Sequence record: OL631481.1
Length of the DNA: 64,000 nt
From: Escherichia phage ECML-183-2
Reading direction: 5' to 3' (one strand)
Shown: in pieces, positions 10,146 through 15,026 of the stretch
Numbering within the stretch: the first letter of the stretch is position 1
Layout: the number at the start of each line of letters is the position of its first letter
Position numbers and translations under genes: made by a program
Notes under the pieces: generated by a model
What the model was told of the DNA's origin: nothing
What the model saw: the letters and a program-made list of their open reading frames with translations, nothing else
The model's database searches: none

Positions 10146-10224
10146 TGGAGGCGGGAATTGGATTTGAACCAATGATCTCCAGCATATGAAACTGGCGAGG
10201 ACGACCAGACTCCTCTATCCCGCT
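10146..10224 (-). tRNA. tRNA-Met(CAT)
   Basis: hand-folded cloverleaf: anticodon loop TTCATAT, T-arm ATTGG-TTCAAAT-CCAAT, encoded CCA; position 1-72 is an A-C mismatch. Confidence 0.6.
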
Positions 10225-10301
10225 ATTATGTATCCCGTGCTGGATTCGAACCAGCATCACAAAAATTGTGGATCTCTTATCCTGTAAGTCTAACGGGAAA
10301 C

Positions 10302-10375
10302 TGGTTGTTTCGACAAGAATCGAACTTGTGTCTCACGATTATCAGTCGTGGGTTCTACCATTGAACTACGAAACA
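10302..10375 (-). tRNA. tRNA-Ile(GAT)
   Basis: acceptor TGTTTCG/CGAAACA, anticodon stem CACGA/TCGTG with loop CTGATAA, T-loop TTCGATT, encoded CCA. Confidence 0.75.
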
Positions 10376-10438
10376 TTTAAAAGAATATCTCACGTCTGAT
10401 ACAGACTAACCTTTTGTCTGACGCATGAAATATTTAAT

Positions 10439-10515
10439 TGGTCGGAATTGCAGGATTCGAACCTGCGACCCTACGCTCCCAAAGCGTATGCTCTACCAAA
10501 CTGAGCTAAATTCCG
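10439..10515 (-). tRNA. tRNA-Pro(TGG)
   Basis: acceptor CGGAATT/AATTCCG, D-arm GCTC-AGTTTGGTA-GAGC, anticodon loop TTTGGGA, T-arm GCAGG-TTCGAAT-CCTGC, CCA. Confidence 0.8.
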
Positions 10516-10520
10516 TTATA

Positions 10521-10596
10521 TGGCTGGTCTGTCTGGATTTGAACCAAACCTACGACAGTCAAAGTGTCGTGTGCTACCGGACTACACTACAAACCA
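10521..10596 (-). tRNA. tRNA-Gln(TTG)
   Basis: acceptor TGGTTTG/CAGACCA, anticodon stem CGACA/TGTCG with loop CTTTGAC, T-loop TTCAAAT, CCA. Confidence 0.8.
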
Positions 10597-10694
10597 ATAA
10601 ATCATTTAATGAAGGGCAACCAGAAGAAGTGTGAGAGAAGGAGAAAACCATGAGTAAAAGAGAAAGTTTTCTGGCAACCCTTTATTAAATAATT

Positions 10695-10771
10695 TGGAGC
10701 GTTATATCGGATTCGAACCGATGCCACCGACTTGGAAGGACGGGATGCTGAACCGCTAACACTAATAACGC
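10695..10771 (-). tRNA. tRNA-Gly(TCC)
   Basis: acceptor GCGTTAT/ATAACGC, anticodon loop CTTCCAA (one stem mismatch), T-arm ATCGG-TTCGAAT-CCGAT, CCA. Confidence 0.65.
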
Positions 10772-10784
10772 TTTGTATATATTT

Positions 10785-10814
10785 ACTATACTACATTTTA
10801 CTATCGAATGTCAA
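10785..10814 (-). promoter_or_regulatory. sigma70-like promoter (TTGACA-N18-TATAGT) inside the tRNA cluster
   Basis: minus-strand TTGACA 10814-10809, 18 nt spacer, TATAGT 10790-10785; predicted start a few nt upstream of the tRNA-Gly 5' end. Confidence 0.5.
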
Positions 10815-11089
10815 TAGTTATTTAATAGGTGGGACAGTGACGAGTATCCCTTTGGGTGACTAGCCCTACGTTCGGTAAGCTAACTTAAAATAATACAAAA
10901 CCAAAGTCAAATATTATTCTTCGTTGCTGTCGATGGGAGAGCCGCTTCTTCTTTTGCCCCATCCAACCCTACTCCGGTCAAGTTTCAGGTAACTCTTTGT
11001 GTGATCAACACAATACTAAGAACACTGTCTTTCGAACAGACCTTGTGCACAGGATACGACGATCAATCACAGTGCCCTTAATGTTGTGT

Positions 11090-11164
11090 TGGTGCTCCCA
11101 CTCTGAATCGAACAGAGATCCACGGATTACAAAACCGTTGTAATAGCCATTATACTATAGGAGC
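11090..11164 (-). tRNA. tRNA-Thr(TGT)
   Basis: acceptor GCTCCTA/TGGGAGC, anticodon loop TTTGTAA, T-arm CTCTG-TTCGATT-CAGAG, CCA. Confidence 0.65.
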
Positions 11165-11255
11165 AAAGCTGGGACTCGGCAGGATTCGATACCTGCAATT
11201 CCAGAAGCCTCTTGGCGACTGGGGGGTTTACCTTAACTCTACAAGTCCATAATTC

Positions 11256-11341
11256 TGGCGATGAGTATAGGATTTGAACCTATATCGTTCTTTCGAACAC
11301 GGATTAACAGTCCGCCGCTTAAACCATTCAGCCAACTCATC
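11256..11341 (-). tRNA. tRNA with anticodon GTT (Asn-type) but type-II architecture
   Basis: acceptor GATGAGT/ACTCATC, anticodon stem GCGGA/TCCGT with loop CTGTTAA, extra variable hairpin GTTC-GAAA-GAAC, T-arm ATAGG-TTCAAAT-CCTAT, discriminator G, CCA. Confidence 0.5.
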
Positions 11342-11347
11342 TTAATT

Positions 11348-11435
11348 TGGTGGTGAGTGATGGAGTCGAACCACCCGAATCGCAATGATAACAGATTTAC
11401 AGTCTGCCCCGCTACCCCTACGGAATTAACTCACC
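11348..11435 (-). tRNA. tRNA-Tyr(GTA)
   Basis: acceptor GGTGAGT/ACTCACC, anticodon arm CAGA-CTGTAAA-TCTG, long variable arm, discriminator A, CCA. Confidence 0.8.
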
Positions 11436-11565
11436 TAAATGCTAATATTTAAATTCTTTTTAAAATAGCCAGTGTTCACACCACTAACTATGAGGTATCG
11501 GTAAAGTGGTTACCGCCACTTGCCGAAGATTTACTCTGCTAAAGTAAGCTATATTAAAAAGAACT

Positions 11566-11651
11566 TGGCGGTAGATGTAGGACTCGAACCTACACGCCGT
11601 TTCCGACTACAGTTTAGCAAACTGTCGTGGCTACCATTTCACCAATCTACC
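11566..11651 (-). tRNA. tRNA-Ser(GCT)
   Basis: acceptor GGTAGAT/ATCTACC, anticodon arm ACAGT-TTGCTAA-ACTGT, long variable arm, T-arm GTAGG-TTCGAGT-CCTAC, discriminator G, CCA. Confidence 0.8.
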
Positions 11652-11655
11652 AATC

Positions 11656-11746
11656 TGGCGGAAGGAGGGAGAGTCGAACTCCCAAGGCTCTTTCAAGCTC
11701 GGCGGTTTTCAAGACCGTTTTCGTCGCCACGTCGATTTGCCCTTCC
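11656..11746 (-). tRNA. tRNA-Ser(TGA)
   Basis: acceptor GGAAGGG/TCCTTCC, anticodon region ACGGTCTTGAAAACCGCC, long variable arm, T-arm GGGAG-TTCGACT-CTCCC, CCA. Confidence 0.8.
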
Positions 11747-11754
11747 ATACTTAT

Positions 11755-11784
11755 AATCTAACATAAAATAATGTTAGTTGTCAA
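11755..11784 (-). promoter_or_regulatory. sigma70-like promoter directly upstream of tRNA-Ser(TGA)
   Basis: minus-strand TTGACA 11784-11779 with a weak -10 about 17-18 nt downstream; tRNA 5' end at 11746. Confidence 0.35.
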
Positions 11785-11980
11785 TAGTTTTTTAAAACAT
11801 TTTACCATGAATGGTGACTCCACCAACCCCCGTTCTCAGCGAACGGTGCTCTTCGAGCATTTATGTCTTCTAATATAACCGTGGCCTTTGTTTATAATGT
11901 CTGACATACTTACCTCATTCTCTGCCACCATGATCAGTAGTGGGTTCAAATCACTTGAGCTAATTCATGTTAAAATGTTC

Positions 11981-12055
11981 TGGTGTCTTTACAAGGAATC
12001 GAACCTTGACTAAGAGTTTAGAAGACTCCTGTGCTATCCATTACACCATAAAGAC
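11981..12055 (-). tRNA. tRNA-Arg(TCT)
   Basis: acceptor GTCTTTA/TAAAGAC, D-arm GTGT-AATGGATA-GCAC, anticodon loop CTTCTAA, T-arm CAAGG-TTCGATT-CCTTG, CCA. Confidence 0.75.
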
Positions 12056-12057
12056 GT

Positions 12058-12132
12058 TGGTGGCCCTGGCTGGTTTCGATCCAGCTACCTATCGGTTATG
12101 AGCCGACAGCTCTCCCATTGAGCTACAGGGCC
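12058..12132 (-). tRNA. tRNA with CAT anticodon (Ile2-lysidine type or elongator Met)
   Basis: acceptor GGCCCTG/CAGGGCC, D-arm GCTC-AATGGGA-GAGC, anticodon loop CTCATAA, T-arm GCTGG-ATCGAAA-CCAGC, CCA; overall resembles bacterial tRNA-Ile2. Confidence 0.7.
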
Positions 12133-12342
12133 ATAAATGTGGTAACAGAGACGCTGACGATTGTAGAGAACCGCTACATTCTCTAAGACCAAGCCCAACT
12201 TTCAGCGTAAAAGTTCTTGAGCCGAGACTATTCCTTTTCCTCTTTGGTAGCTAACCTCTGAAGAAGTAGTCTCTAACACTATCCGCAGTGCAAGCCTCTC
12301 TTAACAAAAGTCAACGACCCTGTTACCACACTTGATGAACGT

Positions 12343-12372
12343 ATCCTAACATATGAAGGATACGTTTGTCAA
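12343..12372 (-). promoter_or_regulatory. sigma70-like promoter at the upstream end of the tRNA unit
   Basis: minus-strand TTGACA 12372-12367 with a weak -10; overlaps a 9 bp inverted repeat AACGTATCC/GGATACGTT. Confidence 0.3.
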
Positions 12373-12379
12373 TAGTTAT

Positions 12380-12628
12380 TTAAGCATATTCTGCTACTTC
12401 TTCACTATCTTTCTTTTCCAGAAGAGCAACAACCAAAGCTTCTGCGTTAAAAGTATTAATTTCAAGATCCATCTCTCGCATCAGAGCCAAGAAATCAATA
12501 ACTTTAACATCTTTAGTGATTACAATAGAAGTTGTACCATTGTTTTCAGATGTGTATTTTTCTGGATGGAAAAGAAAAACTGCATTGCCGTTACCATCTT
12601 CAAACACGTGTTTTTCTAATAGAGACAT
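12380..12628 (-). CDS. hypothetical protein
   Basis: ORF with AGGAGG RBS before the internal ATG (MSLLEKHVF...). Confidence 0.4.
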   Translation of the reverse strand: MSLLEKHVFEDGNGNAVFLFHPEKYTSENNGTTSIVITKDVKVIDFLALMREMDLEINTFNAEALVVALLEKKDSEEVAEYA

Positions 12629-12636
12629 TGTTCCTC

Positions 12637-12888
12637 CTAATCTGTTAGTTGTTCGTCCTCTACCAAGTTTGACACGAGAACGTCTGTTATACATTGATGC
12701 TGATAAACCCTTTCGGGACTATCATCAAAAGCCAAACCTGTGCAAATAGAACAGAGGTCTGATTCCTTGATGACTCCATTTTTATCACGTCTGGAGTGGT
12801 TTGTCAAATGCCTATTACAAGCACGGCACCTAAAATAAAAACTATTTTGCATATATCCTTCGAACCCCAAATGGGGAGTGATCGGCAT
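12637..12888 (-). CDS. hypothetical Cys-rich (zinc-finger-like) protein
   Basis: 83 aa with CRACNRH ... CSIC motifs. Confidence 0.4.
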   Translation of the reverse strand: MPITPHLGFEGYMQNSFYFRCRACNRHLTNHSRRDKNGVIKESDLCSICTGLAFDDSPERVYQHQCITDVLVSNLVEDEQLTD

Positions 12889-12925
12889 CTCCTCACTTCT
12901 AGTTTAGCACGAAGGATATCTTAAG

Positions 12926-13111
12926 TCAACTAGGAATAATTTTATCCTTTTTGGTTTCATAACCAGTCCAATCTAAATCCTCCCAGCCTTCATCATCGTC
13001 TAACACATTGTCATCATCATAAGATGCAATGTTATAAATAGAACGTGGATTACAAGACATACAATCTTTAATAGGCACATGATGCCATTTGCACGGATTC
13101 TCACTAATCAT
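12926..13111 (-). CDS. hypothetical protein
   Basis: 61 aa ORF at the edge of the AT-rich divergent region. Confidence 0.35.
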   Translation of the reverse strand: MISENPCKWHHVPIKDCMSCNPRSIYNIASYDDDNVLDDDEGWEDLDWTGYETKKDKIIPS

Positions 13112-13590
13112 TGCACACCTCCATTCTTGTTAAGATGTTTCGTACTGTACTTCATACTGATCTATAGATCAAGTATTATTTATAATAATTTATTATTTTA
13201 TTTTTAATTGATAGAAGTTGATCTGTACGTACCAGTTCTGATACACTGTACCTGTTTGTTAGATCTAATAATTATTTATTATTAATATTTAATAATTATT
13301 AATCTAGTACGGAGTACAGTACTTGAGTACAGAGTACTACATCAACAACCTAAAACCTTAACTCGCTGCGCTCGTTAATAGATTTCTAGGGTAGCATACT
13401 TCGAAGACAAAAGTCAAGAGTTTTATTAAAATTATTTTCTGTGTGCAAAAACCTTGCTTAAACAGGTAGCAATAGTATAGTCTATAACATAAGCTTCATA
13501 AGAAGCTCGTAGAGCAAGTTAACTTACTAGGTAAGGTGATTTACATCTTATATATAAAAAGTGCGTCAGAGACGCGTTTAGGAGGCTAGA
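13112..13590. promoter_or_regulatory. AT-rich divergent intergenic control region with palindromes and GTAC-rich repeats
   Basis: perfect 14 bp palindrome TGATCTATAGATCA; repeated AGTACAG/GTACT units; separates minus and plus transcription blocks. Confidence 0.5.
13454..13481 (+). promoter_or_regulatory. sigma70-like promoter (TTGCTT-N16-TATAGT) for the plus-strand early operon
   Basis: hexamers read directly from sequence upstream of first plus-strand gene. Confidence 0.4.
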
Positions 13591-13914
13591 ATGAGATTTA
13601 CAAGACAAGAGGTGGTTGTGCTGGACGAAGCAATGACAATGATCGTCTTTTACTACGAGGATATCTTCTGTGCAGCATATCATTTAAATGACATTCAGAT
13701 TGAATGGCAGCAGATAGCATTCTTGTTGGACAAGAGTAATCATTTAGATGGCTTTGAGTATTTGGAATGGGATGGTGCAAAGGAAGTTAAAATTGTAGGG
13801 TTAAATCACGATCAGATTGTTGACATGCAATGTAAGTTGTGTCATTATCAGTTCTCAAACAAAGTCAAACTCGAAAGGCAATTGGAGGTGGTTAAAGATG
13901 ATAGCACTAATTAG
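13591..13914 (+). CDS. hypothetical protein
   Basis: 107 aa ORF, first gene of the plus-strand block, RBS AGGAGG. Confidence 0.5.
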   Translation: MRFTRQEVVVLDEAMTMIVFYYEDIFCAAYHLNDIQIEWQQIAFLLDKSNHLDGFEYLEWDGAKEVKIVGLNHDQIVDMQCKLCHYQFSNKVKLERQLEVVKDDSTN

Positions 13915-14014
13915 TGAGAATCCAGTCCTTGCAACAATTGTTCTGATTTTTGCCTTATGTGTGGTTCACGATATTCTGGTAAGCTATTTTGACAATAAAG
14001 GAGGTAAGAAATGA
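13898..14014 (+). CDS. small membrane protein (38 aa)
   Basis: RBS GGAGGTGG before ATG; single hydrophobic helix. Confidence 0.35.
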   Translation: MIALISENPVLATIVLIFALCVVHDILVSYFDNKGGKK

Positions 14015-14205
14015 AAGACGTTATTCAAATGGTATTCCGTGTAACTCTAGATGGTATACACGTTGTTAAAGGCACACAGAACTACACAGAAGCGAAAGAA
14101 CACTTCTTAGAGTGGATTGATACACTGAAGACACAAGATGTGTCCTACAGCCGTGTTACGCTTACTGGCGACCATACCCCAATCATGGAGTACGTAAAGA
14201 AATGA
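14011..14205 (+). CDS. hypothetical protein
   Basis: ORF with ATGA stop/start overlap. Confidence 0.5.
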   Translation: MKDVIQMVFRVTLDGIHVVKGTQNYTEAKEHFLEWIDTLKTQDVSYSRVTLTGDHTPIMEYVKK

Positions 14206-14441
14206 GCAACTATCCAATTACAGGCGTAACCTATTCTTGTGTAGCAAAAGGTGGTTTATATACGGTAGTGGAATTTCCAAAACCTGCCGGAATATCTAAA
14301 GTGTTTGATCCTGTGGTTATCTATGAAGATCTTAGAACAGGTCAACGTTACTGGAGATTTGTGAATGACTTTTTAGATCGTATGGAGGTAGTAAGTGGCG
14401 AAAACACCGAAGAAGTTATCAAAGCCAAAGAACGTTACTAA
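14202..14441 (+). CDS. hypothetical protein
   Basis: ORF with ATGA overlap. Confidence 0.5.
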   Translation: MSNYPITGVTYSCVAKGGLYTVVEFPKPAGISKVFDPVVIYEDLRTGQRYWRFVNDFLDRMEVVSGENTEEVIKAKERY

Positions 14442-14748
14442 GAAACAGAAAAACGAGGTTCTCAAAGTAGCCAAATCAGTTCCTAAGAAAGATAAATTTG
14501 ATACGGAGGCATTCGTCTTTGACACACCAATCGAGAAGATTGAAGAAGCGTTGCAACGTCTTGAGGAGCAGGAGGCAGATCCAATGGCTGAACCACTCAC
14601 GGCAGACCAAATTTATTGGTGGGGAATATGGACTTTGCAACTACCAGAAGCAAAACGAAGAGGAATGACTTCAGTTCCTACTTGTGCAAAAGAAGCGGCT
14701 GTGTTAGGTTTGTATGAGAAATCTAAAAAGAGGAGCAAAAAGAAATGA
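14395..14748 (+). CDS. hypothetical lysine-rich protein
   Basis: GTG start after GGAGG; basic N- and C-termini. Confidence 0.4.
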   Translation: MAKTPKKLSKPKNVTKKQKNEVLKVAKSVPKKDKFDTEAFVFDTPIEKIEEALQRLEEQEADPMAEPLTADQIYWWGIWTLQLPEAKRRGMTSVPTCAKEAAVLGLYEKSKKRSKKK

Positions 14749-15026
14749 TCAAGACTTTCCTGAAGTGTGTAAAAGCAACAGATAATGAGTGGTACTCTGG
14801 ATTATTCACGGCTGGCAAGAAATACGAGATCCTCAACGGGACAGGCAAGAAGTTTTCTCTCGTTGTAAACGATGAAGGTACGAAGCAAATGGTATTTGCT
14901 GAAAGTTCTGTTTATGGTATTTTTGAAGTAGTGCAAGAAGGCTCTCCAATGATTCTGGAGTATCATGGCACTAATAAACCATATACTGCTATGGATGTTA
15001 TCAACAACAAGAGGAATGCAAAATGA
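14745..15026 (+). CDS. hypothetical protein
   Basis: ORF, translationally coupled. Confidence 0.5.
   Translation: MIKTFLKCVKATDNEWYSGLFTAGKKYEILNGTGKKFSLVVNDEGTKQMVFAESSVYGIFEVVQEGSPMILEYHGTNKPYTAMDVINNKRNAK

Follow-up and report, generated by a model that had tools for sequence, protein, structure and literature searches.

The junction and its predicted promoters

The window analysed here is a stretch of 64,000 nucleotides from Escherichia phage ECML-183-2 (OL631481.1), and the element in question is the intergenic junction at 13112-13590, a gap of 480 bp between two oppositely oriented gene blocks. By its sequence, the window comes from a Phapecoctavirus, that is, a phAPEC8-like E. coli myophage of the subfamily Stephanstirmvirinae with a genome of about 150 kb. 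The 801 bases around the gap are 98-99% identical to 62 deposited Phapecoctavirus genomes, and the junction itself is about 98% identical in 62 phage records. It is flanked by a minus-strand open reading frame (ORF) of 61 residues (12926-13111) and a plus-strand ORF of 107 residues (13591-13914). Leftwards, the 61-residue gene is followed by an array of ten minus-strand tRNA genes (10146-12132) and then, according to the annotation of relatives, by lysis and structural genes, which in phage ZCKP1 (NC_047994, 150 kb) include those for spanin, terminase, portal and head proteins. The rightward side of ZCKP1 holds a 34-kb block of small ORFs and then RNA and DNA ligases, exonucleases, thymidylate synthase and ribonucleotide reductase. 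ORFs, tRNAs and the annotation of relatives thus bear out the initial annotation, which had placed the gap between a minus-strand tRNA/structural block and a plus-strand block; the palindrome, GTAC repeats and AT-rich runs that it described are also all present where it placed them. Deposited records leave the gap unannotated, except for an uncommented 'repeat_region' in phages nepoznato, anhysbys and tuntematon.

To compare this region between lineages, orthologous junctions were collected from phiWec188, phi92, Klebsiella phage FKP3 and Citrobacter phage Tr1, using the 107-residue protein as an anchor; together with the window lineage, these make the five lineages referred to below. Distant tblastn matches of the 61-residue protein in Seunavirus phages were not syntenic, and a protein-based locus search of IMG/VR with the 107-residue protein matched no pattern. 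All five junctions were then scanned with a sigma-70 position weight matrix (PWM), whose frequencies follow published compilations, and the scores were ranked against all window positions on both strands. Every promoter named in what follows is a prediction from a consensus matrix.

By this ranking, the gap holds three sigma-70-like sites that reach or exceed the 99.99th percentile, and a fourth that reaches the 99.95th. First, P_L-prox (13172-13144, minus strand; score 11.4, 99.99th percentile) consists of a -35 hexamer TTGATC (13172-13167), a 17-nt spacer and a -10 hexamer TACAGT (13149-13144); its predicted start, at about 13137, is followed by a ribosome-binding site GGAGGTG (13122-13116) and by the ATG of the 61-residue gene at 13111. 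Second, P_R-int (13218-13247, plus strand; score 11.8, 99.992th percentile) combines TTGATC with an 18-nt spacer containing GTACGTAC and an extended -10, TGa-TACACT, for a predicted start at about 13254. Third, P_L-dist (13417-13388, minus strand; score 12.2, 99.994th percentile) has TTGACT (13417-13412), an 18-nt spacer and an extended -10 TGc-TACCCT (hexamer at 13393-13388), with a predicted start at about 13381. The weaker site, P_R-prox (13454-13481, plus strand; score 8.3, 99.95th percentile), reads TTGCTT, 16 nt, TATAGT, and its predicted start at about 13488 would give the 107-residue gene a leader of about 100 nt.

P_L-prox, P_R-int and P_L-dist recur in identical order and on identical strands in the five lineages. 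Distances can be expressed relative to a 13-mer at 13362-13374, described below, which is present in all of them. P_L-dist, as TTGAC(A/T), 17-18 nt, TGn-TACCCT, lies at +55 to +57 bp from the 13-mer in 5/5 lineages; P_R-int lies at -107 to -112 in the four other lineages and at -144 in the window; and P_L-prox ranges from -153 to -190 across the five. P_R-prox has a counterpart at the same place in phiWec188 (TTGTGT-16-TGcTATAGT), and none was found in the phi92, FKP3 and Tr1 junctions. Between these conserved sites the sequence is otherwise not alignable across lineages: even with phiWec179/188, DNA similarity is confined to 13352-13590, and the A/T- and GTAC-rich half of the gap cannot be aligned. 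All along the window there are strong TTGACA-N17/18-TAnnnT sites in the orientation of the genes, which indicates that host-type promoters are the rule in this phage. With strong sigma-70-like promoters predicted in both directions, at positions conserved in five Stephanstirmvirinae lineages, the divergent control region proposed in the initial annotation finds support.

On this basis, which is one of sequence and comparison, we consider it probable that the gap serves a phAPEC8-like phage as a compound hub of early transcription, at which the sigma-70 RNA polymerase of the host initiates. Its four promoters would form two back-to-back pairs, P_L-prox/P_R-int and P_L-dist/P_R-prox, each enclosing an A/T-rich tract at the position of an UP element. 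The leftward promoters would feed the 61-residue gene and the largely untranslated tRNA array, and the rightward ones a long operon of small early genes together with the genes of DNA metabolism. The inner promoters, P_R-int and P_L-dist, are convergent, with about 127 bp between their predicted starts, and their transcripts should overlap by about 127 nt, an arrangement that would allow interference or antisense control.

Palindrome, inverted repeat and conserved 13-mer

The perfect 14-bp palindrome TGATCTATAGATCA (13158-13171), which includes two GATC sites, coincides with the -35 hexamer of P_L-prox and the first part of its spacer. Palindromes of this type are no commoner than chance: the window holds eight perfect palindromes of at least 14 bp, against 5.2 ± 2.2 in dinucleotide-preserving shuffles. 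The dyad TGATCTATAGATCA itself occurs only once. Among 12 close relatives the right arm, formed by the -35, never changes; the left arm, in the spacer, is mutated in four (nieznany, UP17, Schickermooser and phAPEC8). At the same position phiWec188 and phi92 have the non-palindromic TTGACT-T(T)-TAGATCT, a -35 hexamer and then a conserved spacer TAGATC, and Tr1 and FKP3 have a -35 TTGACC followed by an unrelated spacer. The -35 of the window lineage, TTGATC instead of TTGACT or TTGACC, would thus complete a dyad beside the TAGATC common to phiWec188 and phi92. Because the -35 arm is invariant, the spacer arm mutates and the lineage-specific TTGATC completes the dyad, the palindrome reads as a by-product of the promoter, incidental to P_L-prox rather than a conserved operator. 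The operator role that the initial annotation had suggested for it finds no support, given its single occurrence, the mutated left arm, its non-palindromic state in four lineages and its overlap with the P_L-prox -35 and spacer. Of the earlier interpretation, the divergent control region is thus supported and the palindromic operator is not.

Two A/T-rich tracts dominate the left half of the junction. AT tract 1 (13173-13217) separates the back-to-back -35 hexamers of P_L-prox and P_R-int, at the UP-element position for both; indels among close relatives vary its length, and an A/T-rich tract occupies this position in 5/5 lineages. AT tract 2 (13266-13303) comprises 38 nt of pure A/T and is nearly palindromic (inverted repeat I2). 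It starts 12 nt past the predicted P_R-int start, between the two facing promoters, and a nearest-neighbour ranking of the 150 kb analysed in ZCKP1 puts it last in duplex stability, for lengths of 40 bp and of 60 bp alike. Nine close relatives with good assemblies show no substitutions in it.

AT tract 2 forms part of a 56-bp imperfect inverted repeat. The left arm, IR-L (13142-13197), contains two GTAC sites, the palindrome and the start of AT tract 1, and the right arm, IR-R (13267-13322), contains AT tract 2 and the first AGTAC units. Local alignment of IR-L with the reverse complement of IR-R scores 40, against 17.5 ± 2.7 in 300 mononucleotide shuffles (z = 8.3), from which we infer that IR-R is an inverted, partly decayed copy of the P_L-prox arm. 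The window lineage is about 37 bp longer between P_R-int and the 13-mer than the four other lineages, and, judged from the alignment, the inverted duplication accounts for these extra 37 bp. AT tract 2 and the five AGTAC units would accordingly have arisen in the window lineage by inverted duplication of the left promoter arm, and the duplicated module would lie in the overlap of the facing promoters, near-unchanged within the lineage. As far as the compared sequences go, then, the A/T and GTAC module is a real, lineage-specific oddity that has been kept almost unchanged within its lineage. Deposited genomes do include deletions inside the junction, of 66 bp at one end of nieznany, 15 bp in dw-ec and 38 bp in EP57, the latter two being low-quality assemblies. 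Two other readings of the inverted repeat were not adopted. A mobile element was rejected for want of any further copy in phages or E. coli genomes. An invertible promoter was set aside on general grounds, the 69-bp core seeming rather short to be inverted and the ZCKP1 annotation naming no recombinase gene.

The second peculiarity of this half is its GTAC content. No 4-base palindrome is avoided more strongly in the window than GTAC, with 55 copies in 64 kb (0.86 per kb; observed/expected 0.31); CCGG (0.36), GGCC (0.39) and CTAG (0.50) come next. The avoidance of these palindromes is consistent with an escape from restriction in a group of phages reported by the BASEL study (PMC8594841) to be unusually sensitive to restriction-modification systems. 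Yet ten of the 55 copies fall within about 200 bp, at 13142-13337, and among the 154 GTAC sites of ZCKP1 the junction is the sole cluster with more than four per 250 bp. The clustering of GTAC and AGTAC is far beyond chance. Five AGTAC units start at 13306, 13313, 13318, 13326 and 13333 (13306-13338), and two of these form 12-mers, AGTAC-RGA-GTAC, 20 bp apart. A 57-nt segment containing the units is at least 95% identical in 61 of 64 matching records and has no match outside the phage group nor in E. coli genomes. In ZCKP1, 10/10 cluster sites are unchanged as against 11/42 scattered sites differing, a contrast that is not statistically significant. The phiWec188 junction contains no GTAC, and those of phi92, FKP3 and Tr1 have it unclustered. 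Some GTAC sites of the window overlap with promoter elements, namely the P_L-prox -10 and the P_R-int spacer, and others fall in the predicted zone of transcript overlap. GATC, with four copies in 104 bp, all as GATCT or AGATC, is only weakly enriched, as two other places in the window equal this density.

Some observations on GTAC extend beyond the junction. Outside it, 12 of 24 GTAC sites in phage BI-EHEC differ, against a median of 6.5% for all 4-mers, and of all 34 aligned sites 12 read GTAT and one reads ATAC. This assembly is nanopore-only (Guppy 4, Flye, Medaka; PMC8686590), and the changes suggest either that a modified GTAC motif was miscalled or that C has changed to T with a strand bias. 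In the junction of the Indonesian sister isolate dw-ec the alteration is not seen. No phage GTAC methyltransferase was identified: the four ZCKP1 genes annotated as DNA methyltransferases, namely gp014, gp031, gp089 and gp130 (locus L014, 5234-5917, 12329-12838 and 46806-47285; locus L015, 38114-38908), have no methyltransferase match in Pfam or NCBIfam, and gp089 matches the XkdF-type phage protease family instead (PF14550, E = 1.4e-11). These annotations look unreliable.

A further conserved element of the junction is the 13-mer CTCGCT(G/T)CGCTCG (13362-13374), which with its complementary flanking arms spans 13358-13378 and is considered here on the minus strand, where it begins about 3 and ends about 23 nt downstream of the predicted P_L-dist start. 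On that strand the element reads TTAAC-GA-GC-GCA-GC-GA-GTTAA, the 13-mer being CGA-GCG(C/A)AGC-GAG, and it could possibly fold into a hairpin with a G-N-A triloop. A 25-nt stretch around it is identical in the window and phiWec188. The 13-mer is present in phi92, FKP3 and Tr1 too, and its sole variable base among the five lineages is the middle position of the loop. The outer arms change from TTAAC/GTTAA to (G)CC/GG(T) with complementarity kept, so that three pairs covary. The computed energy of the hairpin, -1 to -3.7 kcal/mol, is no better than that of shuffles. A search of IMG/VR for the motif pair CTCGCTGCGCTCG...TAGGGTA returned 14 loci, some of them unrelated GC-rich contigs, against about five chance matches by our own estimate for 20 specified bases.

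Further right, the leader of the 107-residue gene contains a second hairpin, GCGTC-AGA-GACGC (13563-13575), before the ribosome-binding site AGGAGG (13580-13585; together 13563-13585, plus strand). It is kept in phiWec188 with a G-U change, and no consensus structure was found for it across four lineages. An Rfam scan of 12000-15000 (E <= 1) detected tRNAs only.

Competing explanations for the junction

Several features fit poorly with a transcription hub as the whole explanation. First, a simple promoter pair fits into about 110 bp, as the other divergent junction in ZCKP1 (117878-117991) shows, against 480 bp here. Second, promoter function alone explains neither the invariant 13-mer nor a GTAC cluster that is unique in a GTAC-depleted genome. 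Third, the predictions have weak points of their own: the -10 of P_L-dist (TACCCT) is unusual, A/T-rich DNA yields many -10-like hexamers, and the block TTAGGGTAGCATA (13388-13400) around the P_L-dist -10 is near-identical in the five lineages, a conservation beyond what a -10 needs that may point to a second function. Literature searches turned up no transcript or origin mapping for the phAPEC8/phi92/rV5 group, the papers they returned not having been read for transcript maps.

The GTAC cluster invites the explanation that the AGTAC/GTAC units, with or without the palindrome, form an operator array bound by a phage or host protein that controls the facing promoters. This would account for so dense a cluster, the only one of its kind in 150 kb, in a genome that otherwise avoids GTAC, for the unchanged state of all ten cluster sites in ZCKP1, for the paired 12-mers and for the position of the sites on promoter elements and in the overlap zone. 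It is nevertheless an unlikely account. The cluster is absent or dispersed in the four other lineages, though these keep the promoters; the motif array has no second copy elsewhere in the genome; the difference from the scattered sites falls short of significance; and the units are accounted for by the inverted duplication of an arm that contains a -10. Nor do candidates for the binding protein stand out. In the eight small proteins flanking the gap Pfam detects no DNA-binding domain, and their PHROG families have no known function; a structure model of the 107-residue protein, with a mean confidence (pLDDT) of 41.8 and only six homologues, was unusable. Matches in the gap to LexA, FNR, CRP and IHF sites and to the oriC 13-mer are not above chance. 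Fur-box-like sequences such as AATGATAATCATTCTCATT and GATAATGATTATCATTTGC were seen in large non-coding gaps of ZCKP1 (124.2-124.9 and 135.2-136.8 kb), and also around the reported terminal repeat of the phi92-like phage BME3 (loci L012/L013).

An origin of replication had also been proposed for this region, and to our knowledge no origin has so far been defined for the rV5/phi92/phAPEC8 group. The form that best suits the layout is a transcription-activated origin, in which P_R-int, and P_L-dist from the opposite side, would fire into AT tract 2 and a persistent RNA-DNA hybrid formed there would prime DNA synthesis, the 13-mer hairpin perhaps serving as a priming or loading signal. Such an origin would be compatible with a promoter hub. 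In its favour, the weakest 40- and 60-bp duplex of the ZCKP1 genome begins 12 nt after the predicted P_R-int start and is free of substitutions among close relatives; ZCKP1 has T7-like replication genes (primase/helicase and a family-A polymerase) and no annotated initiator; and the junction is a local minimum of cumulative GC skew.

The skew, however, does not point to an origin. In ZCKP1 its cumulative curve turns at about 2.9, 37.5, 81.7 and 117.9 kb, all four being switches of transcription direction, and its global minimum lies at the other divergent junction. A bidirectional origin here should strengthen the two adjacent skew blocks over the two distant ones, and the mean skews (A, -0.162; B, +0.076; C, -0.151; D, +0.146) reveal no such reinforcement, so that no extra skew component is seen at the junction. 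The check on this relative's genome thus yields a local minimum that tracks transcription, as the authors of the rV5 study likewise concluded for the skew changes of that phage (PMC3606486).

Other evidence is divided. Of what an iteron or DnaA-type origin would carry, the junction has an A/T-rich unwinding element at 13266-13303; in place of an array of initiator repeats it has AGTAC units restricted to one lineage of the five, and its strand-composition switch is not independent of transcription. A single perfect match to the DnaA box TTWTNCACA (TTTTGCACA, 13442-13450, minus strand) stands alone in the gap, where no array was found and where about 1.65 matches with at most one mismatch are expected per 480 bp. 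The arrangement of a promoter followed by an unwinding element (predicted start at about 13254, A/T tract from 13266) is indeed present, but only in the window lineage, as the A/T-richest tract of phiWec188 and phi92 lies upstream of both promoters. Further A/T-rich non-coding gaps exist in ZCKP1, at 124.2-124.9 and 135.2-136.8 kb, and the deletion variants in deposited genomes fall inside the junction. We therefore regard transcription-activated initiation at this site as improbable. The more specific proposal, that AT tract 2, the five AGTAC units and the 13-mer together constitute a transcription-primed replication origin of phAPEC8-like phages, seems quite improbable, and the same holds for its corollary, that GTAC sites have been retained here against genome-wide avoidance as they are needed by the origin.

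A different possibility places the function in the RNA. The IR-R/IR-L stem would form in the long P_L-dist transcript, ahead of the ribosome-binding site of the 61-residue gene, and act as a processing or stability signal, with the 5'-proximal 13-mer hairpin acting on the same RNA. The minus-strand RNA from 13385 to 13105 does fold more stably than shuffled sequence (-61.1 kcal/mol as opposed to -46.1 ± 4.3; z = -3.5), with the GTAC arms paired; covariation between lineages is seen in the outer arms of the 13-mer hairpin, and the 13-mer varies only at the middle base of its G-N-A loop. Such a fold, however, is expected from any inverted DNA repeat, and the long-range stem is confined to the window lineage. 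The energies computed for the small hairpin do not improve on those of shuffles, and the covariation comes from only five lineages in two groups. We give this reading little credence.

Finally, it is highly improbable that the junction is a genome terminus or packaging site (a pac site or terminal-repeat boundary), as might be thought from the nieznany record (MN850598), which begins and ends within it with overlapping ends (locus L005, 1-470; locus L006, 2770-2999): these ends differ by the 66-bp deletion (window 13183-13248), a difference suggestive of an assembly broken at a polymorphic, A/T-rich site, the start points of other records are scattered, and the 342-bp terminal repeat reported for BME3 is in a different large non-coding region, whose ZCKP1 counterpart (135.2-136.8 kb) falls outside the window.

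The early-transcription hub is thus the reading that we prefer. Myophages of the phAPEC8, phi92 and rV5 types are widely isolated and used in phage-therapy cocktails. For this group the junction can now be mapped as four predicted starts, of which three recur across the subfamily, together with an invariant 13-mer and a module, specific to one lineage, that joins the most meltable DNA of the genome to its only GTAC cluster. If it is true that this module is an origin or a regulatory switch, it would provide a useful handle for engineering phages of the group. Even if it is neither, the analysis shows the palindrome and the skew minimum to be by-products of how the promoters are laid out, and skew is not to be taken as a sign of an origin in these phages.

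Neighbouring genes and comparison with known systems

A number of observations concern the genes around the junction. Between P_R-prox and the orthologue of the 107-residue gene, the phiWec lineage (phiWec188; locus L003, 2659-2871) has an additional gene of 70 residues, and FKP3 has a small additional ORF at the same place in the leader. Among close relatives the leader stretch at 13482-13530 is the most variable part. Within the 3' end of the 107-residue gene lies a near-consensus promoter, TTGACA-17-TG-CATTAT (13820-13848), and the C-terminal 35 residues of the protein stay near-invariant when overall identity between homologues drops to 56%; this combination hints at overlapping constraints. 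The tRNA content varies among lineages, with phiWec188 carrying tRNAs for Tyr and a second Ser, and nepoznato (locus L001, 151-669) has a gene for an HNH endonuclease in the tRNA array where the window has tRNA-Gln (10521-10596). Over the junction, E. coli phages share 93-99% identity with records whose labels name Campylobacter, Klebsiella, Acinetobacter or Pseudomonas as the host, and these labels are to be taken with caution.

With respect to known systems, we start with origins of replication. What the junction shares with T4 ori(uvsY) and ori(34), the T7 primary origin and ColE1 is a promoter, here a predicted one, with the genome's most meltable DNA starting within about 10 nt downstream of it; the T7 primary origin consists of phi1.1A/B plus an A/T-rich region. 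The facing promoters with their overlap of about 127 nt also recall RNA I and RNA II of ColE1. The promoters of this junction, however, are predicted to be of the host sigma-70 type, rather than MotA-dependent or of the T7-polymerase type, and the downstream A/T tract is not conserved outside the window lineage. In oriC and P1 oriR, GATC repeats adjoin A/T-rich 13-mers, and here four GATC sites and the GTAC cluster are likewise found beside A/T-rich tracts. The differences are that the density of GATC is equalled elsewhere in the window, that no methyltransferase for GTAC was identified, and that the gap has one DnaA box only and no above-chance match to the oriC 13-mer.

At the level of DNA structure, the mini-hairpins d(GCGNAGC) described by Hirao and co-workers are unusually stable, and the minus strand of the 13-mer contains GCG(C/A)AGC, with its variable base at the N of G-N-A, although the standard energy model gives the 13-mer no special stability.

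Regarding transcription, two conserved promoters that face each other at a short distance resemble the pR/pL switches of coliphages 186 and P2, and transcriptional interference would be expected in both cases. Those phages, however, are temperate, with a repressor and Apl/Cox operators, whereas neither a repressor gene nor such an operator set was found here. E. coli stable-RNA promoters with UP elements, such as rrnB P1 and tyrT, offer a parallel in the A/T tracts directly upstream of the -35 hexamers and, here, in the tRNA array that would be driven from them; the difference is that these tracts would be shared by two divergent promoters, their UP role being suggested by position.

The last comparison is with rV5, of a related group, for which bidirectional promoters were predicted at the divergent junction between genes 10 and 11 (Kropinski et al. 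2013, PMC3606486), and it was made by described layout rather than by sequence homology of the junctions. Four sites in two pairs, an inner facing pair, the 13-mer and the inverted duplication set the present junction apart, as none of these has been described for rV5. What the two have in common is host-type TTGACA/TATAAT promoters in both directions at a switch of gene orientation, with which the changes in skew coincide.

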